From a phage, in the sequence record PZ793367.1: a stretch of 62,283 nucleotides of DNA; one strand, 5' to 3'. Positions 3,319 to 61,049 of this stretch are shown piece by piece; within the stretch, counting starts at the first letter, position 1; each line of letters begins with the position of its first letter. The translations under genes were made by a program, and so were the position numbers. Under the pieces are notes generated by a model, which was not told where the DNA came from, did not search any database, and saw only the letters and a program-made list of their open reading frames with translations.

Positions 3319-4767
3319 ATGGAACTAACAGTCGCTGGCGGCTACTTCATTCCCGGCAAGACGCCGCAAATTATCAATAAGGTTAATGAGTTAATCGCTC
3401 TCGGCTACGTTCCCTACGGTACCCCGACGTATAACGAGGCCAGCGGTTGGGTAAGTCAGCTAATGGTGCTGGGCTACGGCGGCAGCGCTACTGACTACAC
3501 TCTCACGACGGGTTATCTCGATAAGACTCCCTACTTCCCTAAGAAGCCGCCAGTTAACGGTAATTGGGTGTTGCTCGGCTCACTACTGGCGCGCTCCAAT
3601 AATTTCTACGTGCACGCATGGCTTGACGGCGTAGCCGCTGGCCCACTCATCAATATCGACACGGGTACCACTGGCACGCTACCAGTCAGCCGGGGCGGTA
3701 CAGGGGCAACCACGGAACTGGACGCACGCAACAATCTGGAGTTAGGCGCAGAGGATGACGTGACGTTTAACAGCGTTACCAGTCGCAAGCGCAATACCGG
3801 AACGTCAGCGTTCATTGCTCAGGGCATTGATGGCTACACTCCAGCATCCAGCTTTACAACGCAGATGTACGACACCGCAGGTACCACGTTGCTCGGTCAG
3901 GGCGAGTTCCGCGCCAACAATAACGGTACGCTGCAAATCATCAACCGCGATCCTGTAGGTTCAACGTCATACTTCTGGACCTTCGGACGCGACGGGACTA
4001 CTGAGTTTCCGGGACAAACAATTATTCCCGCAACTCCGGGTAAACCTTGCATCCTCAGGTCGGGCGCTCCGGTTCTCCAGTTTGAGGAAACCGATACTGG
4101 CAAGGTTTACACGATGGTTGCCGATGGTAGCGGTCTGCGTATCAATGCTAACAACACAAGCGGTCCGATCGTATGGGGTTATAGCGGAACAACATCTCGT
4201 CTACAATTACCTGGTATCGAGGGTAACATTCAGATGTATAGCGGCACCACAACCAGCCTCGGTGTAATCACTACTGGCGGCGGTACCACAGCGGTGGGTA
4301 CTCGCAACCAGTTTGAGGTGACCACTTCGGCGGGGTTCTATCTGGTGCGACGTAACACTCAGAACACCACCGGACAATATATTATCAACTTCCCTACGAG
4401 TGCAGGAACCCTGGCCCTCGCAGGTACGTCAGGTATCAATTTCAAACATGACATTATTGACGCCGATTTACTGGAAGCTGTGAACCGCATCGACGCGCTA
4501 CGCATGGTCAACTTTGTCTACAACGACGACGAGCAAAACCGCCAGCGCTTCGGGATTATCGCGGAAGAGGCGGAAACTATAGCTCCGCAGTACATTAAAC
4601 ATCGTGAAGAAATGTATGAATGCGACATTGACGAGAACGGATCATCCATCAACCAGAAGTTCCGCGACCGTCCGTTTGTTGACGTTAACCCCATCGTCAT
4701 GGATTTACTGGGCTACGTTAAGCACTTGTCGGCACGCGTGGCTGAACTGGAAGAGAAATTAAAGTGA
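3319..4767 (+). CDS. tail fibre/tailspike protein with C-terminal intramolecular chaperone (peptidase S74-like) domain
   Basis: Fibre motif LPVSRGGTGATTELDARNNLELG near N-terminus; C-terminal DALRMVNFVYNDDEQNRQRFGIIAEEAETIAPQYI resembles the auto-cleaving chaperone domain. Confidence 0.7.
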   Translation: MELTVAGGYFIPGKTPQIINKVNELIALGYVPYGTPTYNEASGWVSQLMVLGYGGSATDYTLTTGYLDKTPYFPKKPPVNGNWVLLGSLLARSNNFYVHAWLDGVAAGPLINIDTGTTGTLPVSRGGTGATTELDARNNLELGAEDDVTFNSVTSRKRNTGTSAFIAQGIDGYTPASSFTTQMYDTAGTTLLGQGEFRANNNGTLQIINRDPVGSTSYFWTFGRDGTTEFPGQTIIPATPGKPCILRSGAPVLQFEETDTGKVYTMVADGSGLRINANNTSGPIVWGYSGTTSRLQLPGIEGNIQMYSGTTTSLGVITTGGGTTAVGTRNQFEVTTSAGFYLVRRNTQNTTGQYIINFPTSAGTLALAGTSGINFKHDIIDADLLEAVNRIDALRMVNFVYNDDEQNRQRFGIIAEEAETIAPQYIKHREEMYECDIDENGSSINQKFRDRPFVDVNPIVMDLLGYVKHLSARVAELEEKLK

Positions 4768-5353: not shown

Positions 5354-7735
5354 ATGCCGAACGCACAAAAGGGGATTAGTGAGTCCCTCGTTGGTCGCGC
5401 GCCGGACACCCAGTCGCCTTACGGCGGCGGTGGTGCTCGCGGGATTACGCAGGTAAACGACGATCCGTACCGCGCTAACCAGATTATTCCGGGCGCTGAA
5501 CTGGACATCAACCAGGCATCCTTCGGTGAGATGGACTCATTCTCCCAGTTCGAGAAGGAAGGCGACACGCTGCAAGCCGAGGAACAGACCTACGACCAAC
5601 CGGACGACTCCGGCGTTGCTGGTATGTCTGAAACTGAGTGGGTAGACCTCGGTCGCCGTTGCTATGACACGGGCCGCACCTTCTACCGTCAGGGCTACCA
5701 GACGCAGCACATCAACGACACCTATCTGTTTAAAGGTCGCCACGAACCGGGCAGCAAGTATTACAGCGAAGCGTTCCGCAACCGCTCGAAAGTTTTCCGC
5801 CCGTTAACCCGCATGGCCTCCCGTAGCTGGGAAGCGGACATTGCAACCGCTCTGTTCCTGAACGATGACTACATGCACATCTCGCCACGCAACGTAACCG
5901 ATCAGGATGCGGATAAAGCGGCGGCAGTGCTGAAGGAAATCGTAAACCTTCGTCTGGATAAAATCTGGTACCCGATTTGTATCGGTGCGGCGCAGGACTC
6001 ATTCATCAATGGGCCAGCAATCGCTAAGGTTTTCTGGTGGCGTGAAACTACCGTTACCAAAACCGACATTCCGGTGCTGGATGAAATGGGTAACCTGGTC
6101 GGTCTGGAAACTACCGAGAACGAAATCGTCGTTCACGATGAGCCGTACATCGACCTGATCCTGCCGGAAAACTTTATCTTTGACCCGACCGCAAAAGCGA
6201 ACGATGTCATCGGTACTGGCAAGTATTTCATCCACAGAAAAATGATGTCTGTTGATGACGTCATGGTACGGATGGAACGCGGCGAGTGGAACATGCTGTC
6301 ACCGGGCGAAATCCTGACGTGTCGCTGGGCGATGGAAGACGACGCCACGCAGCAGGCAAAACGCGGTGAAGGTAAGCCGGACCCAATCAACAACGACAAC
6401 GCTGACACCCGTTACGAATCCGTGATGGTTAACGAAGTGTTCGTCCGCCGTGACGGTATCTGGTACACCTACCACATGATGGGTACCCAGTTCTTACTGG
6501 AAATGCCTGTGGAACTGAAGAACCGCTATCACCACGGTCGCCTGCCGTTCGTTTACGGTACCTGCATGATTGAGTCTCACAATAACGTGCCGGACTCAAA
6601 AGCCCACCTGGGTAGCGAGTTGCAGAAGGCAGTGAACGAAATCAGTAACCAGCGCGTGGACAACGTCAAGCTCGTACTGAACAAGCGTTATCTGGCGCGT
6701 CGCGGTGCATCTATCGACCTGGCCGCTCTGACACGCTCCACTCCGGGCGGCGTAATTTTCACCAGCGACCCGGCTGGCGACCTGATCCCGCAGGAAGTGA
6801 ACGACGTCACCAGTAGCAGCTATGAGGAAACTCAGCGCCTGACTATGGAGATGAACGAAGCGCAGGGTACCTTCAGCGGCCAGGCTGTAGCCAACAACCG
6901 CGAGATGAACGAAACCGTCGGTGGCATGAAGTTGCTGAGCAACGCCGCTACCAAAGTGAACGACTTCGACATCCGTACCTTCGTGTTCACCTTCGTGCGC
7001 CCGGTGCTGGAACTGTTCATGCTCACCGTTCAGTATTATGAGAACGACGAGACGATCATGCACATCGCCGTCGACAACTCGGCCTACTTCCCGCGCCTCA
7101 ACGTGGAAGACCTGACCGACGATCTCATGACTAAACAGCTTGAGATGAAAGTCGATACAGGTATTGGTGCAACTGATCCGGTACAGCGCGTAAACACCTT
7201 GATGTACGGTGTGACGACGGTAATGCAGTTACCCGGCATGGCTGACAACATGGATAGTAAAGCCGTCGGCAGCGCTATCTTCTCAACGCTCGGTCAGGGC
7301 GACGGTAGTAAATTCTTCCCGAATCTGGCGAAGAACTTCCAAGAGCCGCCTCCGTCTGAACCACCAGTTGATCCGCTGGTACAGGCTGCACAGGAAGAAG
7401 CGAAAGGTCGAGTGCAGGAAGCGCAGATTAAAGCTGAACTGGAACTCCAGAAGCAAGCCAACCAACTGGCCGCCGACCGCGAACTGAAGTTGATTCAGAT
7501 GGCGCTTGACGCAGAACTGGAAGGTAAGCGCGGTCAGCTTGATATGTTGCTGTCTATGCTGGATAATGAAACCCGGCTACGGATTGCCGAAGCACAGGAC
7601 AAGACCAAGCGTCAGACCACCGCACTCCAGCACGGAAGCTCATTGCAGCAGACGGCGATGCAGCAGGCCCAGCAAATCGGCCAGCAGGTAACGCCTACTC
7701 AGCAGGAAGTTATCAATGAGTCAAACGTCAAGTAA
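5354..7735 (+). CDS. portal protein
   Basis: 793-aa ORF at the position expected for a portal, between terminase and scaffold/capsid genes; C-terminal Gln/Ala-rich coiled segment. Confidence 0.7.
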   Translation: MPNAQKGISESLVGRAPDTQSPYGGGGARGITQVNDDPYRANQIIPGAELDINQASFGEMDSFSQFEKEGDTLQAEEQTYDQPDDSGVAGMSETEWVDLGRRCYDTGRTFYRQGYQTQHINDTYLFKGRHEPGSKYYSEAFRNRSKVFRPLTRMASRSWEADIATALFLNDDYMHISPRNVTDQDADKAAAVLKEIVNLRLDKIWYPICIGAAQDSFINGPAIAKVFWWRETTVTKTDIPVLDEMGNLVGLETTENEIVVHDEPYIDLILPENFIFDPTAKANDVIGTGKYFIHRKMMSVDDVMVRMERGEWNMLSPGEILTCRWAMEDDATQQAKRGEGKPDPINNDNADTRYESVMVNEVFVRRDGIWYTYHMMGTQFLLEMPVELKNRYHHGRLPFVYGTCMIESHNNVPDSKAHLGSELQKAVNEISNQRVDNVKLVLNKRYLARRGASIDLAALTRSTPGGVIFTSDPAGDLIPQEVNDVTSSSYEETQRLTMEMNEAQGTFSGQAVANNREMNETVGGMKLLSNAATKVNDFDIRTFVFTFVRPVLELFMLTVQYYENDETIMHIAVDNSAYFPRLNVEDLTDDLMTKQLEMKVDTGIGATDPVQRVNTLMYGVTTVMQLPGMADNMDSKAVGSAIFSTLGQGDGSKFFPNLAKNFQEPPPSEPPVDPLVQAAQEEAKGRVQEAQIKAELELQKQANQLAADRELKLIQMALDAELEGKRGQLDMLLSMLDNETRLRIAEAQDKTKRQTTALQHGSSLQQTAMQQAQQIGQQVTPTQQEVINESNVK

Positions 7736-16278: not shown

Positions 16279-17891
16279 GTAACCAATATTACAACTTTAT
16301 CAATCCGGCTGAAGCGGGTACGATTGTCGACCCGTTCGACTACAACCGTGAGATGGAAAAGATCACCGAGGCTTTCTCGGTGGTCCCGCCTGCTTCCCAG
16401 TTAACTTCCGGTACCCTGAACTACTCAACGGATACGGGTACCGGGAACGATCACATCGCCACGCTGGATGACTTTGATACCGACTATGTTGCTGGGAGTA
16501 ACGTTGCACTCCGAATCAATGACGCTTCTACTGGACCGTCTACCCTGAGTGTAAACGGGCTGGCCGCTAAAGACGTCACGCTGTCAGTGTTCGGCGCGGT
16601 GGCGGCAGGTGACCTGTTTGCTGAAGGCGTCTACACGTTCGTATTCAACGGTGAGCGTTTCCAGATTCTGGAGATGGGCGCACGCTATTACACGACAGCC
16701 TTCGAACAGCTTTCGATCGCTCAGGCTAAAGCAGCACTCGCGGCGGCCAGTGAAGCTACGGCACTGAGTGAGCGTAACGCAGCAGCAGCGTCGGCGGCAA
16801 ACGCCCTCGCGTCAGCAAACGCTATTACCGCGTCCAAAAATGCAGCGGCGGGTAGCGCCACGTCAGCGGCGGGTAGCGCCACGTCAGCAGCAAACTCAGC
16901 AACGTCAGCGGCGGGTAGCGCTACGTCAGCAGCAAACTCAGCAACGGCAGCGGCAGGTAGCGCTACGGCAGCGGCGAACTCTGCGACGGCAGCGGCGAAC
17001 TCTGCTACGGCTTCCGACGCCAGCGCAACGGCGGCGGCAAACTCCGCAACGGCGGCGGCAGGTAGCGCGGCGGACGCAGCAACTTACGCGCAGGAAGCTA
17101 TCGACATCGTTAACGCGCCGAACTTTCTCGACCGCGTGCAGGCGGCTGTTCTCGAACTGGAATTGTTCGTCGGTTCCACCGAGTTCTTTGACGCTAACAT
17201 TGATCCGAACGTTAAATATCCGGGTACCACATGGGTGCGTCTACCAGCGTCCACGACTATCCGTATGTCCAACGCAACGGGCACCGACGTGCTGGCCGCA
17301 ACAGGTAGCGACAATGTAGCTTTGACTGTCAGCACCCTACCATCACATAGTCACGCTGTCACAGCGGGTACAGTCAGTTCTACAGACCTCGGTACCGACA
17401 CGCTGGCATCTGTCGACCTCGGTACCGACACGCTGGCTAATTTTACCGACACGGCCAAAACGTCATCCAGTACGGACCTCGGTACCAAAACTACCAGCAG
17501 TTATGATCCTGGTGCAATAGCAACCAACTCCACGGGTGCACACACTCACACAGTCACTCCGTATGCTGCGGAAGGAAGCAACGCGCTTATTAAATCTTCA
17601 GATTTAGGTGCCGTGAAAGCGGGCGACTACACAACATCCTCATCAGGTGCACACACGCACAGCGTCAACCTGGGTGCACACACGCACACTGTAGCGATAG
17701 GTAGTCACAACCACACGTACGCGCTGGGGTCACATACTCATACCGTGGCGCTGGGGTCACATACTCACAACGTTGCTCTCGGTAGTCACAACCACAGCAC
17801 GTCAACATCCGTGACGTCGGTTGGTTCCGGTACGGCGTTCTCCGTGGTAGAATCGTCTCTAATCTTAGTCGCATGGTACAGGAGCGCATAA
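16275..17891 (+). CDS. tail fibre protein 2 (paralogue of fibre 1)
   Basis: Shares N-terminus (YFNYMDP vs YYNFINP), Ala/Ser repeats, HxH repeats and C-terminal LILVxWYR motif with the upstream fibre. Confidence 0.8.
   Translation: MSNQYYNFINPAEAGTIVDPFDYNREMEKITEAFSVVPPASQLTSGTLNYSTDTGTGNDHIATLDDFDTDYVAGSNVALRINDASTGPSTLSVNGLAAKDVTLSVFGAVAAGDLFAEGVYTFVFNGERFQILEMGARYYTTAFEQLSIAQAKAALAAASEATALSERNAAAASAANALASANAITASKNAAAGSATSAAGSATSAANSATSAAGSATSAANSATAAAGSATAAANSATAAANSATASDASATAAANSATAAAGSAADAATYAQEAIDIVNAPNFLDRVQAAVLELELFVGSTEFFDANIDPNVKYPGTTWVRLPASTTIRMSNATGTDVLAATGSDNVALTVSTLPSHSHAVTAGTVSSTDLGTDTLASVDLGTDTLANFTDTAKTSSSTDLGTKTTSSYDPGAIATNSTGAHTHTVTPYAAEGSNALIKSSDLGAVKAGDYTTSSSGAHTHSVNLGAHTHTVAIGSHNHTYALGSHTHTVALGSHTHNVALGSHNHSTSTSVTSVGSGTAFSVVESSLILVAWYRSA
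16770..17060 (+). repeat. in-frame 21/42-bp coding tandem repeats within tail fibre 2
   Basis: gcggcgggtagcgccacgtcagc units repeated, encoding AAGSATSAANSATSAAGSATAAANSAT. Confidence 0.65.
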
Positions 17892-29028: not shown

Positions 29029-29068
29029 TATTTAGATCTCGATGACATTCCCTGTAAATTGATAGCGC

Positions 29069-29099
29069 GCCCTTTCCACTTTGGTTAGGGCTTTTTTTT
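29069..29099 (+). terminator. rho-independent terminator closing the late operon
   Basis: GCCCT...AGGGC stem with internal CCA/TGG pairing followed by T8 tract. Confidence 0.55.
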
Positions 29100-29144: not shown

Positions 29145-29519
29145 ATGGACATGGGATATTACAACATGAACAAGCAAATCAGAGTGGAAATGCTTGTCGG
29201 CATGGTGACATTAACGTGGTCAATCGTGGCGGCAGTATTCAAACAGCCAGTCATTATTGATGAGTTAACTGGTATCATGCCTGGCGCATGGTGGGTATTC
29301 TCAGGCATTGTAATTGGTGGCGCTCAGATCTATATCTCCCGCAACCCTGAGCGATGGATGGGAACATTCAGCCACTGGTGTGTAGCATTCTTCAGTTGTA
29401 TCTTCTGGTGTTATCTCGGCATGGCCGCACAAGCCGCCGCAGTCGGAGTAGTTCCCATCCTGATTTTCTGGTCTACCGCTGGCGTCACTTTATGGGAGTT
29501 GGCACATGTTCGAACTTAG
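29145..29519 (+). CDS. integral membrane protein (about 4 predicted TM helices)
   Basis: 124 aa with four hydrophobic segments; GGAG RBS. Confidence 0.5.
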   Translation: MDMGYYNMNKQIRVEMLVGMVTLTWSIVAAVFKQPVIIDELTGIMPGAWWVFSGIVIGGAQIYISRNPERWMGTFSHWCVAFFSCIFWCYLGMAAQAAAVGVVPILIFWSTAGVTLWELAHVRT

Positions 29520-29739
29520 TTCAATCCCGGTGGACGCTCCGTTACCTTTCATTGCGATCGCAGTGTTATTCAACCTGGTACGCCATGCGTTGAATCTTCA
29601 CCACGAACGTAAGAAAGAGGCGGCGGAAGAGGCCACGAACGAAAGGATTGTTGTGTTGTCGTCGAAGCTGGCGAAGGCGGAACAGACTATCGAGCACTTG
29701 AGGGAAGAGGTGGAACGCTTGAAAAACAAAGGGGCTTAA
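29506..29739 (+). CDS. membrane-anchored coiled-coil protein (possible spanin-like or lysis accessory protein)
   Basis: N-terminal TM segment LPFIAIAVLFNLV then charged helical region; GGGAG RBS. Confidence 0.45.
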   Translation: MFELSSIPVDAPLPFIAIAVLFNLVRHALNLHHERKKEAAEEATNERIVVLSSKLAKAEQTIEHLREEVERLKNKGA

Positions 29740-29750
29740 CGCCCCTTTTT
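29728..29750. terminator. bidirectional rho-independent terminator at convergent gene junction
   Basis: AAAGGGGC-TTAAC-GCCCCTTTTT; stop codons of both converging genes lie in or next to the loop. Confidence 0.7.
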
Positions 29751-29936
29751 AATACTCGCTGCAATCTTCAGTTCGACAGGTACGCGATTGAGATCGCGGT
29801 GAATGCCTACATCCGGTGGTGCGGAAATACGTAGACCGACGTTACCATTCTCAGAGTTCTCTACCGTCACGACAATATCGTTACCGATGTAGACGCTCTG
29901 ACCTTCACGTCTGGTAATACGGAGTCCCTTAGCCAT
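29736..29936 (-). CDS. csrA: CsrA/RsmA-like RNA-binding regulator
   Basis: [48 protein letters not shown] aligns with E. coli CsrA [44 protein letters not shown]; GGAG RBS. Confidence 0.75.
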   Translation of the reverse strand: [66 protein letters not shown]

Positions 29937-30162: not shown

Positions 30163-30218
30163 CTGTGAAGCTCCTTATATTGGCGTCCTTGCCAGGATTG
30201 ACGACCTCGACTGGCCGC

Positions 30219-30749
30219 TTAGATGTTCACGCGGTTGGCGACCCATCCATAAATGAATGAGCGATTTTTGGCGTTACTTTCGGTAAGCTCAATATACCGC
30301 ACACACTGTAGGCTGTTAAGCATTTTCAATAATACTTTCGTACCAGCGCTACCACGCAACCGCAGGAAATCGTCCAGGGCATTAATCGTACGTTTACCGA
30401 CCTTACCATCCACTACTAGGCCAGCGCCTGACGCGGCGTTGAGCGCACGCTGGAGGAATTTACCAGCCACCGCCGGACCCATGTTCACGCCAGTGTCTAC
30501 CACTTCAGCACCGATTGCTGAGTCGAGTTCCGCCACCACGTAGAATCCGGTGTTCACTACATAATCGTTGTAGTAAATCTCATACGCTGTAGATTGCGGC
30601 AAATCTTTCATGTGACCTTTGTACCCGGCGTTGCGAGCAACCTTCTCGGTAATTCCGTATTTGGTGGCACCGCCCGGATCATTCGGATGGTCCACGTATC
30701 CACCTTCGACCCGGATAATCTCTTCAATGATTTCGCGTACTGTACTCAT
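30219..30749 (-). CDS. endolysin (GH108-like N-acetylmuramidase with peptidoglycan-binding domain)
   Basis: EGGYVDHPNDPGGATKYGIT motif; AAAGGAG RBS. Confidence 0.8.
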   Translation of the reverse strand: MSTVREIIEEIIRVEGGYVDHPNDPGGATKYGITEKVARNAGYKGHMKDLPQSTAYEIYYNDYVVNTGFYVVAELDSAIGAEVVDTGVNMGPAVAGKFLQRALNAASGAGLVVDGKVGKRTINALDDFLRLRGSAGTKVLLKMLNSLQCVRYIELTESNAKNRSFIYGWVANRVNI

Positions 30750-41726: not shown

Positions 41727-44147
41727 ATGACCTATAAGCCTGAACAGGCGCAGTTGTTTTATGCCGCGCTAACTGGAATGCAAAACCCGCCGCTCGTATG
41801 GCAGTGGTTCTGTGACTATGACAAAGACCGACGCGACCTGGCTGGCTGGGAATACGCGTACATGAATCCTGCAAAGCTGGCTGACATTCAGGCTCGCGGT
41901 TGCGGCGTGTTCACGTCTGTCAACGGTTCGACTACAGGCGGTCGTGGTAAGAATGACATCGACATCTTCCGTGCAGTGTTCATGGATAGTGATGGTGCTC
42001 CGTTCCCGGACCAGTGGCCTGTTCCGCCACACGCTATCGTCAAGCGCGACGACACGCATTATCACGCCTACTGGTTTATCGACGGTGACTGCTCCGCTAT
42101 GGAGTGGATGATCGCACAGAAGCAGATCGCTCTGCACTTCGGTAGCGACGAGTCAATGGTAAACCCTGACCGCGTTATGCGTGTACCGGGATTCCTCCAC
42201 CAGAAGTCACTGGACAACCGCGTTCTCTACGAACTGGCGGAACTCCACGCTGACATGCCACGCTACAAACTGCGCGACATTATCTCCCGCTTCACGTTGA
42301 CCGACGAGAAGATGATGAAGATGGGCGAGTGGGTACGCCAGCGTAGCGCTCAGTACGTGGGCGGGATGGATGACTTCGACGACAATGAGCACAACTGTAA
42401 ACAGTTCATCACCTACCTGAAGAACCGCGCCGAGCAATCCATCAGCGGCCAGGGTGGTAACCATGTGCTGTTTAAAACTGCCGCCGCCGGACGTGACTAT
42501 CAACTGTCGCCGCAGAAAACCTACGAGTTAATGATTGACTACTGGGACGCCAACAATGAACCGCCGTGGGGCGATGAGATGTGGCCGACCGTCCAGAACG
42601 TCTACAAGTACAGCCAGAATGGTGTAGGCGCACGCTCGTTTGCTGCACGTATCACTGAGCCTGCCGCTATGCTGCCGGGTATGTCACTGACTCCGGTTGA
42701 GCAGGCTATCTATATGCCGGAAGCGCCAGTCGTTGACGAGAAACAACAGATGGCTGAATCGGTAGCACGTCTGGCCGCCGCTATTGAGTCCGGCGACGAC
42801 AGCATGATGCAACCTGACGACATGGTTTACAGTTCCAACCATACGCGTAACGCCATGCTGTTCATGTGGCTGCATTGCCGCAAGGGTGAGTACCTTGTGG
42901 ATGACGGTATCATGTACCAGTTCAACGGTAAAATTTACGAAGCACAAGCGCCGGACTTTCTGAAGGTTAAGCTGGCTACCGAGATGCAACTCAGCTTCCC
43001 GTCTGAGTCAACCATCAACGGTACCGCCAACCTCATCAAGCTGTTGCTGGCACGCTCTGCTCCGTCCAAATGGCCTGAGTGGAAAGGTGATCCCGATAAG
43101 GATACATCCGGTTTGATTTGTTTCAACAACGGTATCCTGGATATTAACGAGAATCTCTGGTATGAGCACACGCACTTACTGCGTATTCGTACCATTCTCC
43201 CGTTTGATTATGACTACAAGGCCACTTGCCCTACGTGGGAAAACTTCCTGCGTGAAGTGTGGGGTAACAGTAAATACGAACCGCTGATTGAACAGTTACA
43301 GATGTGGTTTGGCTATATGCTTATGGATGATACCAGTCAACAGAAGATGCTCATCATGTCCGGTACCGGGGGCGCTGGTAAGTCGACCATCATGCGTACG
43401 CTTAACAAAATGGTAGGTGATTACAACTGCGCGTTCCCTAACCTGAACGGCTTAACTAAAGATTCGCAACTGGCCGCTTTATTCGATAAGCCTGTGGCAA
43501 TCCTGAACGACGTATCCGATCCGTCACCATCCAACGCTACAGCCGTGGTTGAACGTATTAAAGGTATCGTTGGTCAGGATAAATTAACAATTGACCGCAA
43601 ATACCTGACGTCGATTGAGGTCAGTTTCCGGTGCCGTCTGAACGTTACCTGCAACGCCTTCCCGCGTTTGTCGGAATCATCGAACGCTATGCTGCGTCGT
43701 GGTCTGTTCTTCACAACCAAGCGTTCGTTTGTCGGCAAGGAAGACATGACACTGGAACCTCGCATCGACAAAGAGATGACTGGTATCATCAACTGGGCGA
43801 TCGCAGGTATCAAAAAGTTACAGAAGATTGGCAAGCTGGAAAACCACCCTTGCATGAATGACGATATTGAAATCTTCCGCATGTTGACATCGCCGCTTGA
43901 AACGTTCGTACAGGATGCGCTGGTATACCGCGAGGATGCTTACATTACCATCCCTGATCTGTGCAAACGTTACAAAGCGTGGTGCACACTGAACGAAGGA
44001 TCGCGCATGTTCAGCAACCAGTCACTGATAAGTAAGATCGGTGTATTCCCCGGCTTGAGTCTGGCGAAACGTGGCCGCGACTATGTACTGGAAGGTGCTT
44101 ACCTCCGACCGGACGATGAACCAGACAACGGAGTGATTTACGAATGA
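41727..44147 (+). CDS. bifunctional primase-polymerase / SF3 helicase
   Basis: N-terminal prim-pol-like AVFMDSD and THYHAYWF; Walker A GTGGAGKST in C-terminal half. Confidence 0.8.
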   Translation: MTYKPEQAQLFYAALTGMQNPPLVWQWFCDYDKDRRDLAGWEYAYMNPAKLADIQARGCGVFTSVNGSTTGGRGKNDIDIFRAVFMDSDGAPFPDQWPVPPHAIVKRDDTHYHAYWFIDGDCSAMEWMIAQKQIALHFGSDESMVNPDRVMRVPGFLHQKSLDNRVLYELAELHADMPRYKLRDIISRFTLTDEKMMKMGEWVRQRSAQYVGGMDDFDDNEHNCKQFITYLKNRAEQSISGQGGNHVLFKTAAAGRDYQLSPQKTYELMIDYWDANNEPPWGDEMWPTVQNVYKYSQNGVGARSFAARITEPAAMLPGMSLTPVEQAIYMPEAPVVDEKQQMAESVARLAAAIESGDDSMMQPDDMVYSSNHTRNAMLFMWLHCRKGEYLVDDGIMYQFNGKIYEAQAPDFLKVKLATEMQLSFPSESTINGTANLIKLLLARSAPSKWPEWKGDPDKDTSGLICFNNGILDINENLWYEHTHLLRIRTILPFDYDYKATCPTWENFLREVWGNSKYEPLIEQLQMWFGYMLMDDTSQQKMLIMSGTGGAGKSTIMRTLNKMVGDYNCAFPNLNGLTKDSQLAALFDKPVAILNDVSDPSPSNATAVVERIKGIVGQDKLTIDRKYLTSIEVSFRCRLNVTCNAFPRLSESSNAMLRRGLFFTTKRSFVGKEDMTLEPRIDKEMTGIINWAIAGIKKLQKIGKLENHPCMNDDIEIFRMLTSPLETFVQDALVYREDAYITIPDLCKRYKAWCTLNEGSRMFSNQSLISKIGVFPGLSLAKRGRDYVLEGAYLRPDDEPDNGVIYE

Positions 44148-44638
44148 AACCTTTCTACGCAAGCAAGACACCAAAGGAGTTACGCGATTGCTGGGGTACG
44201 CCCCAGTGGTTGATTGACCGCCTGTCGCTGGAGTTTGATTTCGCAATCGACGCGGCGGCAGATGAGCACAACAGAAAGTTCCCCCTGTATTTCAAGCAGG
44301 GATTAGGCTTTAACTGGGCGGACTTCTGCCCGGAAGGTAAATGGGTATGGAACAACCCTCCGTTCTCCTTAGTGGACCCGTGGGTGGATCAGTGGATACA
44401 GTGCAGCGAATCGGACCGTGGCGTGGTGTCAATCGTCAACGCACAGACTGCCGCTCGCTGGTTTCACAAGGCGCTGGAGGCTTGCTCGGAGGCCAGGTTT
44501 AGCATCGGGCGTGTGGCCTTCATTCATCCCGTTACCGGAAAGCGTGTAGCCGGAAACAACCTGGGGCAAGTGCTGTTCGTGTTTGAACCGGGCAAGCTGG
44601 GCGAAAAAAGAATTGGCACTTTCAAAGGAACCAAGTAG
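44144..44638 (+). CDS. dam: Dam-like DNA N6-adenine methyltransferase (orphan)
   Basis: CWGTPQWLIDRL N-terminus and NPPFS catalytic motif; no restriction partner nearby. Confidence 0.75.
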   Translation: MKPFYASKTPKELRDCWGTPQWLIDRLSLEFDFAIDAAADEHNRKFPLYFKQGLGFNWADFCPEGKWVWNNPPFSLVDPWVDQWIQCSESDRGVVSIVNAQTAARWFHKALEACSEARFSIGRVAFIHPVTGKRVAGNNLGQVLFVFEPGKLGEKRIGTFKGTK

Positions 44639-44665
44639 AATGGATTACTTGACAAAGGAGGATGT

Positions 44666-44854
44666 ATGAAAATCACACCACTGAAGGAATGGATTGAAGG
44701 TCACCGCTCGTTAACGGCTGCGGCTGAAGTGCTCGACGTTCCAAAACAAAACCTGTCGTTTGCTTTGAACAAAGTGAAGGGCGCTACGTTTGTGCTGGAG
44801 GAAGACGACGGGACACTGCGGTTGTTACGTGAGGTTGCAAAAAGGGGCGCATAA
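44666..44854 (+). CDS. small helix-turn-helix protein (tentative)
   Basis: 62 aa; RSLTAAAEVLDVPKQNLSFAL HTH-like segment. Confidence 0.4.
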   Translation: MKITPLKEWIEGHRSLTAAAEVLDVPKQNLSFALNKVKGATFVLEEDDGTLRLLREVAKRGA

Positions 44855-53451: not shown

Positions 53452-53637
53452 TTACTTTTCACCACCCTTAGCCACAGCATCACGCGACGTCTGCGCGTTC
53501 TCGGCGCGTTGCTGCGCGTTAGGTGAATCGGACTCAGCGCGCCCGGTTTGACCGGATACGTTTGGATTGTACCCGACGTTAGCAGAGCAACCAGCCAGCA
53601 GAGTAGCCAGGATGATAGCGATGATAGATTTAGACAT
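53452..53637 (-). CDS. small lipoprotein
   Basis: MSKSIIAIILATLLAGCS lipobox; AGGAG RBS at ATG 53637. Confidence 0.5.
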   Translation of the reverse strand: MSKSIIAIILATLLAGCSANVGYNPNVSGQTGRAESDSPNAQQRAENAQTSRDAVAKGGEK

Positions 53638-57452: not shown

Positions 57453-58069
57453 AATTCATTGGCCTTATTGTTGAGCCACTTGATGGCGTCTTGTTGAGTT
57501 TTAAAAGTGGTTTTGTATTTGCAATCCCACCAGATTGCATGGTCACCGTTTAACTTCCGGTATGCTGATCCACGTCTGAAGCCGCGCTGGTCGCTCAGGG
57601 TGATGGTGTCGCTTTCATGGTTGATGGCTATAACCCAGCCTTTAGGCAGATTTACCGGTACGCCCAGGAAATGCGGCTGATTCTCGGCTGGCACGTTGAC
57701 GGAGGCATTACTCAGGCAGCATAACGCGCCCGGTAAATGACTGAAGTCGCCAATAGTCACACCGTCAAAGCTGACGACATAACGGTTGGTTGTTTTTGTC
57801 TTGCATACGTGACCACGTTGACGCGTCCGGTCATGCAGGGTAAACACTACACAGCCTTGAGTGTGCTGTACCAGATCCCAATACTCAGGGAATGCGATAG
57901 ACACGCCGCAGACATCAATGATTCGCGTATTTGGTGCAGCGTCAACATGCGGCGTTAAGTGCGCGATGATTGCGTCAAGCGCCTCGATTAACTCATAAGC
58001 CGGGGCCGTCTTCGGGATAATGCAGGCATAATCATCCCGCAGGTTCTGATAGTAGCTTAAAGTTTTCAT
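57449..58069 (-). CDS. protein with C-terminal xPxGW-family domain
   Basis: VNLPKGWVIAINHESDTITLSD ... QQDAIKWLNNK. Confidence 0.5.
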   Translation of the reverse strand: MKTLSYYQNLRDDYACIIPKTAPAYELIEALDAIIAHLTPHVDAAPNTRIIDVCGVSIAFPEYWDLVQHTQGCVVFTLHDRTRQRGHVCKTKTTNRYVVSFDGVTIGDFSHLPGALCCLSNASVNVPAENQPHFLGVPVNLPKGWVIAINHESDTITLSDQRGFRRGSAYRKLNGDHAIWWDCKYKTTFKTQQDAIKWLNNKANEL

Positions 58070-60977: not shown

Positions 60978-61015
60978 TTTGTTTCTCTCTTTCGTTAATT
61001 GGTTGGTGCAATCTA

Positions 61016-61044
61016 AATATAATTAGTGGCGTCCCTGCCGTCAA
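61016..61044 (-). promoter_or_regulatory. sigma70-like promoter TTGACG-17-TATATT
   Basis: -35 at 61039-61044, -10 at 61016-61021; member of the conserved early-promoter family. Confidence 0.5.
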
Positions 61045-61049
61045 GTGTT

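Follow-up and report, generated by a model that had tools for sequence, protein, structure and literature searches.

A diverged CsrA-family protein at the end of the lysis genes of a Xuquatrovirus phage and a candidate CsrA-type site at the holin start

The CsrA-like gene of the lysis cassette

The window, which is the whole stretch of 62,283 nucleotides (nt) of phage DNA analysed here (PZ793367.1), is a complete Xuquatrovirus genome whose aligned blocks are 91–99% identical to Escherichia phage PTXU04, with its start rotated by 245 nt. Its lysis cassette lies on the minus strand and runs from an endolysin gene through the gene of a putative class II holin to csrA, a gene for a 66-residue CsrA-like protein that is 100% identical to PTXU04 gp28 (PTXU04_00028 / HOV50_gp28) and is referred to here by that name (Table 1). 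On the evidence of sequence and modelled fold, gp28 is almost certainly a functional RNA-binding protein of the CsrA family, whose members are small dimers that recognise GGA motifs in RNA. The whole picture drawn below, in which this diverged gp28 orthologue forms a holin-csrA pair with its own promoter, coupled translation and feedback on the holin, is put forward tentatively, as possible but somewhat short of probable. On the genome map csrA ends a leftward block that comprises an exonuclease, SSB, DNA polymerase, an RdgC-like gene, the endolysin and the holin.

Table 1. Features of the lysis locus and their positions in the window
Feature	Position	Strand	Remarks
Endolysin	30219..30749	minus	Glyco_hydro_108 76.3 bits; PG_binding_3 60.8 bits; phrog_315
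Sigma70-like promoter (predicted) TTAACA-N17-TATATT	30291..30319	minus	last fifth of endolysin gene; 10/12 consensus matches
Hairpin GCGGCC-AGUCGA-GGUCGU	30201..30218	minus	directly after endolysin stop; conserved; no U-tract
Hairpin UGGC[AAGGAC]GCCA, candidate CsrA-type site	30181..30194	minus	GGA (30186-30188) in 6-nt loop; 4-bp stem
Holin Shine-Dalgarno sequence AAGGAG	30171..30176	minus	holds second GGA (30172-30174); a GGA is present here in every lineage
Putative class II holin, 77 aa	29929..30162	minus	two transmembrane domains, Lys-rich C-terminus; DUF7940 (30.2 bits, cut-off 27), phrog_1356 'holin' (3.5e-8), PTXU04 annotation
Overlap of csrA start and holin stop, ATGGCTAA	29929..29936	minus	8 nt
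csrA-like coding sequence, 66 aa	29736..29936	minus	ATG at 29936; Pfam CsrA match, fold, invariant R47, dN/dS
Bidirectional intrinsic terminator AAAGGGGCGTTAAGCCCCTTT	29728..29748	both	G+C hairpin, T-runs either side; annotated in PTXU04
Convergent gene, 77 aa, gp27 homologue	29506..29739	plus	N-terminal transmembrane domain and coiled coil

The initial annotation of this locus had reported a phage CsrA/RsmA homologue embedded in the lysis cassette. This is also the published reading of the identical PTXU04 gp28, and the finding is already known, both in the literature and in database annotation, because GenBank entries carry the CsrA label, Adler et al. 2025 describe PTXU04_00028 as a CsrA homologue (PMC11879866) and phage CsrA homologues have been catalogued since 2020, from 30 phages (PMC7366521) and in a broader hidden Markov model survey that raised an anti-CRISPR idea (PMC8450108). 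The orthologues in Pondi and HelliStehle Bas95, each 94% identical to the window protein in amino-acid sequence, are labelled csrA and 'CsrA-like regulator', respectively, and they occupy the same slot between the holin and the convergent gp27, before the same terminator. RefSeq labels the PTXU04 gene 'transcriptional regulator', similar to an F116 protein, and PHROGs holds a 'CsrA-like regulator' family, with a match to phrog_5527 at 5.9e-9. There is no difference of substance between PTXU04 gp28 and the window protein, the window being another isolate of the same genus. In the dCas13d knockdown screen (CRISPRi-ART) of Adler et al. 2025, PTXU04_00028 was scored Semi-fit, single guides on it gave smaller plaques in E. 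coli BL21, and the gene was among those that are toxic to E. coli on expression or that interfere with infection; the role of a CsrA copy in a virulent phage was described there as previously untested (PMC11879866). What is new here is the conserved order and overlap of the cassette, the conserved internal promoter and the conserved dual-GGA site at the holin start.

Family, fold and selection

Assignment of gp28 to the CsrA family was borne out by profile, structure-database and fold searches, by the retained equivalent of Arg44 and by the selection acting on the gene. The Pfam CsrA profile (PF02599) matches residues 5–47, corresponding to profile positions 2–44 of 53, at 47.5 bits (E = 1.7e-12), a significant score against a gathering score of 27 bits, and the domain is present in all eight of the eight clade members. 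A phmmer search of PDB chains matched only CsrA, RsmA and RsmE, the best being RsmE 2jpp at 2.9e-6. An AlphaFold2 (AF2) monomer model has a mean predicted local distance difference test score (pLDDT) of 72, rising to 81–83 over residues 11–40. When this model was compared with the PDB by Foldseek the top 15 matches were all CsrA, RsmA or RsmE, with probabilities of 0.57–1.0 (0.92 or above for the first 14), query-normalised template modelling scores of about 0.42–0.51 and root mean square deviations of 2.5–3.9 Å, mostly about 2.7–2.9 Å, over some 39–48 alignment columns. Strands β1 and β5 are unformed in the monomer model, as expected of strands that pair across a dimer, and gp28 is presumably a dimer with the same fold as CsrA. 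In the family, two chains interdigitate in a homodimer with two RNA-binding surfaces, each built from β1 of one chain and β5 of the other. Size, β-strand core and profile match are thus shared with E. coli CsrA and with Pseudomonas RsmA and RsmE (PF02599; 1y00, 1vpz, 2jpp).

The protein is nonetheless a strongly diverged member of the family, as judged from its 34% identity to E. coli CsrA, the replacement of the C-terminal helix and the change of Leu4 to Ile. Alignment with MAFFT gave this identity and reproduced the aligned blocks quoted in the initial annotation. Arg47 aligns with E. coli Arg44 and is invariant in the clade; the equivalents of Leu2, Arg6, Arg7, Val40, His43 and Arg44 are identical to those of E. 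coli CsrA, and Ala36-Pro37 is also kept. Leu4, in β1, and Arg44, in β5, have been named as critical RNA-contact residues of the family (PMC7652899). In the alignment Arg44 is retained and Leu4 is represented by a conservative change to Ile7, which is invariant in the clade. The Val42 equivalent is likewise Ile, and the Ile3 equivalent is Arg or Cys in the clade and Arg in the window protein. Less easily reconciled with an intact CsrA function are the Ile47 equivalent, which is Asn, and the C-terminal helix, neither of which is conserved. In place of the amphipathic helix of E. coli CsrA (EEIYQRIQ) gp28 carries a Pro-containing, Lys-rich tail that is conserved within the clade, has no similarity to EEIYQRIQAEK and forms no helix in the model, where pLDDT is only 58–60. 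At the other end there are three extra N-terminal residues (MAKG). The ratio of non-synonymous to synonymous substitution rates (dN/dS) is 0.06–0.09 against relatives that are far diverged at synonymous sites, which indicates strong purifying selection and argues that the CsrA match is not due to chance.

The altered C-terminal region raises the possibility that gp28 is an antagonist of host CsrA, which might soak up CsrB and CsrC, compete without repressing or form inactive mixed dimers. Such a protein would share the fold and, presumably, the dimeric state of CsrA, the modified tail and the lost Ile47 equivalent could change the outcome of binding, and the toxicity of gp28 would be accounted for. 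However, interdigitated mixed dimers are unlikely at 34% identity and the sequence carries no sign of lost RNA binding, and an antagonist is considered improbable.

Conservation of the lysis linkage

Across 18 of 18 distinct cassettes, drawn from three isolates, one JGI contig and contigs from Logan, ENA and NCBI, the order endolysin-holin-csrA followed by convergent gp27-like and gp26-like genes is unchanged, with CsrA identity falling to 67%. The overlap of the csrA ATG with the holin gene, noted at first in this sequence, is 8 nt long in the window and recurs as an overlap of csrA start and holin stop of 8, 1 or 4 nt in every cassette lineage. As the GGAG of csrA itself stands only 4 nt ahead of its ATG, csrA is probably coupled to translation of the holin. 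At the distal end, the 5′ arm of the terminator encodes the last codons of csrA (K-G-R-stop). One terminator is common to csrA and the convergent gp27-like gene, and it is kept in relatives. The same arrangement is seen on the distant contig L033, whose CsrA homologue (P0015) is 50% identical and ends in the same KKG-stop tail. There csrA overlaps by 38 nt not a holin gene but the gene of an 80-aa lipoprotein, which matches PHROG 1275 'Rz-like spanin' at 3.7e-16; behind csrA come the same terminator and then a gp27 homologue.

Extension of this linkage to the wider subfamily was considered and not upheld: it is true for L033 and not evidently so for P0009. This protein, 60% identical over 53 residues, is the nearest relative beyond the clade; it has no evident lysis context and counts against a general association. 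Linkage to lysis genes is thus strong without being universal. A profile search across 1.84 billion representatives gave 4194 family matches with just one cluster below 1e-30, and the Xuquatrovirus clade is therefore an isolated branch. It is also rare, since scans of IMG/VR and JGI metagenomes found, apart from PTXU04, just a single 95% contig and a single CsrA that is unrelated. As a separate observation, many of the best matches in the profile search hold 2–10 tandem CsrA-like stretches (P0010, P0011, P0013, P0024), for example four in the 310-aa P0010 and ten in the 2399-aa P0013.

The place of csrA within the genome bears on a further explanation, in which gp28 would be an anti-defence factor directed at immune genes of the host, for example CRISPR-Cas, which it would repress. 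In Serratia, cas mRNAs are repressed by RsmA, and it has been suggested that phage homologues exploit this (PMC8450108), an idea also cited by Adler et al. (PMC11879866). However, at the end of the replication and lysis block gp28 would be expressed with the lysis genes, too late against a defence acting at entry. The knockdown phenotype arose in E. coli BL21, which to our knowledge has no cas genes, and the relative Bas95 is reported to be very sensitive to restriction-modification systems. An anti-defence role is the least probable of the explanations discussed here, and very unlikely.

A predicted internal promoter in the endolysin gene

The initial annotation placed csrA last in an endolysin-holin transcript. 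The gene order stands, whereas the transcript is only predicted, and a sigma70-like promoter in the endolysin gene suggests a shorter one. In a consensus scan promoter-like matches overall were at chance level, and the site was therefore tested by conservation. Among degenerate endolysin codons that are invariant in amino acid, 17 of 79 (22%) are nucleotide-identical across five lineages. The four codons of the two hexamers (144, 145, 152 and 153) and the codon that follows are identical in five of five; a rare Leu codon, CTT, is among them. Every codon of the spacer varies, and the spacer length is constant at 17. For a site named beforehand, the chance of such conserved hexamers is approximately 0.22^4 = 2e-3. 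Transcription would be predicted to start near 30284, giving a leader of about 120 nt, and the conserved promoter suggests a dedicated holin-csrA transcript, on which csrA is probably carried in addition to an endolysin-holin one.

A candidate CsrA-type site at the holin start

Such a leader would contain two GGA motifs, 14 nt apart in the window and 12–14 nt apart in L008 and L007, the first in the loop of a short hairpin and the second within the holin Shine-Dalgarno sequence. Between the endolysin stop and the holin ATG only AGCGGC, which belongs to the post-stop hairpin, and GCAnGGAnG are invariant across lineages, and this at a divergence where the proportion of synonymous differences (pS) in the flanking genes between the window and L007 or L008 is 0.67–0.78, that is, where synonymous sites are saturated. 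The hairpin appears in minimum free energy folds and has counterparts in L008 (CCGCA[GGGA]UGCGG) and in L007 (GCA[UGGA]UGC), where both partners of one stem pair have changed. On the distant L033 the spanin leader holds GGU[GGAA]ACC, then a Shine-Dalgarno GGA 12 nt later.

In SELEX and bridging studies of CsrA sites, GGA loops are mostly of 6 nt, stems are of 4 base pairs (bp) or fewer and paired sites are 10–63 nt apart (PMC7652899). The holin leader agrees with these rules of loop size, stem length and spacing, including a second A(N)GGA on the Shine-Dalgarno sequence. The published CSRA_TARGET sequence rules were re-implemented and run on 87 phage genes, taking 60, 120 or 200 nt upstream. 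The holin passes whichever length is used, and only 4–7 of the 87 genes pass. Ranked by A(N)GGA sites close to the start, which in the holin stand at −26, −12 and +2, it comes second of 87.

Several observations weigh against the leader being a genuine CsrA-type site. The hairpin is short, with only 3–5 bp across lineages, the leader folds are no more stable than shuffled sequences (z of 0.18 to −1.9, mostly near 0) and a single covarying pair is seen among about five independent lineages. GGA in a Shine-Dalgarno sequence is common, occurring in 59 of the 87 genes, and a loosely defined hairpin GGA together with a Shine-Dalgarno GGA is found in eight. The SELEX-like core CANGGAYG is not enriched genome-wide, with 10 sites against 17.8 expected. 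Conservation of the GCAnGGAnG motif shows constraint and not which protein reads it.

Other candidate regulatory elements were rejected. A helix sequestering the Shine-Dalgarno sequence (GUGAA...UUCAC) in the full-leader fold was dropped for lack of conservation in Pondi and Bas95. GGA motifs at the start of csrA, through which the gene might regulate itself, were set aside because L007 has lost them and a Gly codon accounts for part of them, and a GGA site in the gp26 leader, conserved in four lineages, is absent from L007. A near-copy of the hairpin with one mismatch, GGCAGGGACGCC at 61028–61039, is regarded as coincidence, about 0.3 such matches being expected by chance. It falls within the spacer of another sigma70-like promoter (CTTGACG-N17-TATATT, 60984–61045, minus strand), which lies in the early region upstream of the gp91 homologue.

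Separately from the holin, the start region that looks most like a CsrA target in the genome is that of the gp46 homologue (leader 44600–44668, plus strand; start 44666), with A(N)GGA at −39, −24, −9 and −6 and a 7-bp hairpin, CAAGUAG[AAUGGA]UUACUUG. The gp46 protein is 62 aa long and ends a helicase-primase-Dam operon.

Other mobile CsrA copies and action on the host

E. coli CsrA is encoded in the alaS-csrA locus, whereas the copy described here stands beside the holin of a virulent phage. A tblastn search with E. coli CsrA as query returned 88 phage records, mostly from Pseudomonas and Vibrio phages, at 45–100% identity; none of the 88 was a Xuquatrovirus, these copies being too diverged for that query. 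The CsrA-domain proteins of temperate Pseudomonas phages (RsmM type, or Bci, of AUS531phi, F116 and phi297) share 46–54% core identity with gp28. They are 123 aa long with a long C-terminal extension, in contrast to the 66 aa of gp28 in a virulent podovirus, and the copies of F116, phi297 and PP9W lie in an early leftward operon beside cI, unlike the window copy at the end of the lysis genes. This type has been studied for its effects on quorum sensing, motility and biofilm in lysogens, and deletion of bci in a temperate Pseudomonas phage lowers infectivity (PMC7546807). Vibrio phage 1.232.O and related oyster Vibrio phages have structural modules distantly related to those of PTXU04 and also carry a CsrA gene. 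In 1.232.O and the D65 group, however, this is a host-like 57-aa CsrA in an early operon, away from the lysis genes, and its 65–67% identity to E. coli CsrA marks it as a separate and recent acquisition from a host. RsmQ of plasmid pQBR103 (PMC9928087) and the ICE-borne Legionella CsrT (PMC7366521) are further CsrA regulators of mobile elements, able to cross-talk with host RNA targets; both belong to another type of element and have no link to lysis genes, and RsmQ is close to host Rsm proteins.

By analogy with these copies gp28 may be a host-directed mimic that acts mainly on the E. coli Csr regulon through GGA-containing host mRNAs. It would perhaps escape CsrB and CsrC and keep cell metabolism as it is in growth phase, with CsrA high, to the benefit of phage production, its place beside the holin being incidental or serving only the timing of expression. 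This is a real possibility, although by itself not a probable one, and it is nearly as likely as feedback on the holin. The conserved RNA-binding core with its Arg44 equivalent and the toxicity of gp28 both agree with it. The mobile homologues studied so far, Bci (PMC7546807) and RsmQ (PMC9928087), act on host traits, and the hosts of phages bearing CsrA tend to possess CsrA themselves (PMC8450108). Smaller plaques upon knockdown would fit a role in ageing lawns, and a sigma70-like promoter could fire early. Yet gp28 is only 34% identical to host CsrA as compared with 60–90% for host-like phage copies, which argues for a specialised target range. Across deep divergence the gene has stayed last in the lysis cassette, its start overlapping the stop of the gene before it. 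Early operons house host-takeover genes and the other phage CsrA genes. A CsrB-like decoy RNA was also sought: in 150-nt windows of the genome neither GGA nor A(N)GGA is denser than under a Markov null, and an Rfam scan of the whole window found no family. The lack of a CsrB-like GGA-rich RNA in these scans counts against a host mimic.

A model for feedback on holin translation

The alternative that we favour is feedback on the holin. At the holin ribosome-binding region a gp28 dimer would bridge the two GGA motifs 14 nt apart and limit access of ribosomes to the holin start, throttling synthesis of the holin and, via coupling, of gp28 itself. Since translation would be coupled, the amount of gp28 would follow that of the holin, and the resulting negative feedback would govern how fast the holin builds up and hence when lysis occurs. 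The same leader site may also be read by host CsrA, so that lysis time would be tied to the growth state of the host, and spill-over of gp28 onto host CsrA targets would account for its toxicity. Feedback of gp28 on holin translation is a plausible but doubtful proposition at present. The more far-reaching proposal, that phages have taken a CsrA-family lineage into service for the post-transcriptional control of lysis alone, with holin and csrA as a self-contained bicistron that has its own promoter and feeds back on the holin, is on balance unlikely.

Between the two functions suggested at the outset, host mimicry and the timing of lysis, the latter gains circumstantial support from the probable coupling to the holin, which is conserved, and from the candidate CsrA-type site, and host mimicry remains compatible with the data; the two are not mutually exclusive. 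A vague proposal that the protein may time lysis is made specific by its fixed position, probable translational coupling, predicted private promoter and candidate CsrA-type site, the last two being conserved. Known controls of holin timing, which include antiholins such as lambda S107 and T4 RI and the 'sdi' structure of the lambda S mRNA, work through another holin-like protein or through the structure of an RNA. If our model is right, feedback by gp28 would share with them the purpose of restraining the holin, in part at the same step of holin translation start. None of these controls is known to rely on an RNA-binding protein of the CsrA family whose gene lies downstream of the holin. Feedback by gp28 would then be a lysis-timing control of a new class, different from antiholins, as well as the first instance in which a global-regulator family serves as a lysis clock, and a possible route for host physiology to set the latent period. 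If the feedback model fails, the gene becomes one more host-mimicking regulator on a mobile element.

The published knockdown must be read with the overlap of the two genes in mind. The gp28 guides map to PTXU04 30174–30204 and cover the last holin codons (30184–30204), so the small-plaque phenotype is not assignable to gp28 alone. In the CRISPRi-ART scores, guides on the holin ribosome-binding site were Not fit (−1.32), the endolysin was Semi-fit (−0.80) and gp28 Semi-fit (−0.22). Both the guide position and the Not fit score of the holin's own ribosome-binding site count against feedback on the holin. The overlap also invites the explanation that the fitness effect does not stem from gp28 at all, the guides blocking ribosomes on the 3′ end of the holin gene and gp28 being dispensable cargo. 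Against this, the protein is under strong purifying selection and no relative has lost it, which shows its importance to the phage, and guides on the holin's own ribosome-binding site gave no fitness signal. There is thus little reason to expect this explanation to hold.

Neighbouring genes and further observations

Converging on csrA from the plus strand is a second small membrane-protein gene (29145–29519), encoding 124 aa with about four hydrophobic segments and overlapping the 77-aa gp27 homologue. Both convergent genes accompany the cassette in all relatives, and the 77-aa gene is found in the distant L033 as well. Neither has a family match and both were Not fit in CRISPRi-ART. Their products could be lysis accessories of an i-spanin-like or antiholin-like kind. 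No homologue of the L033 phrog_1275 spanin was found in the window and no recognisable spanin near the lysis cassette, and the gp27-like protein, with its transmembrane domain and coiled coil, is a candidate i-spanin-like partner. The only open reading frame (ORF) with a good lipobox (MSKSIIAIILATLLAGC...) is that of the 61-aa gp71 homologue (53452–53637, minus strand), which is situated in the early region far from the cassette and could be an o-spanin or a superinfection-exclusion lipoprotein.

Further upstream on the plus strand, an intrinsic terminator (GCCCTTTCCACTTTGGTTAGGGC followed by T8, 29066–29098) lies between the gp25 and gp26 homologues, after the gene of a 2197/2210-aa polyvalent protein. 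Its long loop caused it to be missed by a simple scan, and in L007 its stem is kept through compensatory changes (GCCCC...GGGGC). The giant 2197-aa ORF is the gp25 homologue (22396/22435–29028, plus strand). Its homologue on L009 carries Pfam LPD38, a large polyvalent protein domain, and gp25 was among the strongest Fit genes of the PTXU04 knockdown screen.

On L007, the most distant cassette-bearing contig, a small gene directly after the DNA polymerase (3718–3909, plus strand) shows a weak Pfam match to Acb2_Tad1_hairpin, an anti-CBASS and anti-Thoeris sponge fold, and its position is that of PTXU04 gp34, which was Semi-fit. The 8-mer GCGGCCAG occurs in 22 copies on both strands of the window as compared with 3.1 expected, a count reached by 0 of 100 dinucleotide-preserving shuffles. 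Examples are at 30211–30218, 43470–43477 and 6876–6883, and one copy is the invariant start of the post-endolysin hairpin. The excess may arise from coding bias, with Ala-Ala-Ser encoded on one strand and Leu-Ala-Ala on the opposite one.

With respect to PTXU04 the window is a mosaic relative, as noted from 12384 onward, near 58069 and at 17516–17821, and several short stretches do not align. The gp16 homologue is an ORF of 467 aa in the window as against 756 aa in PTXU04, and the gp82 homologue has 206 aa as against 119 aa.

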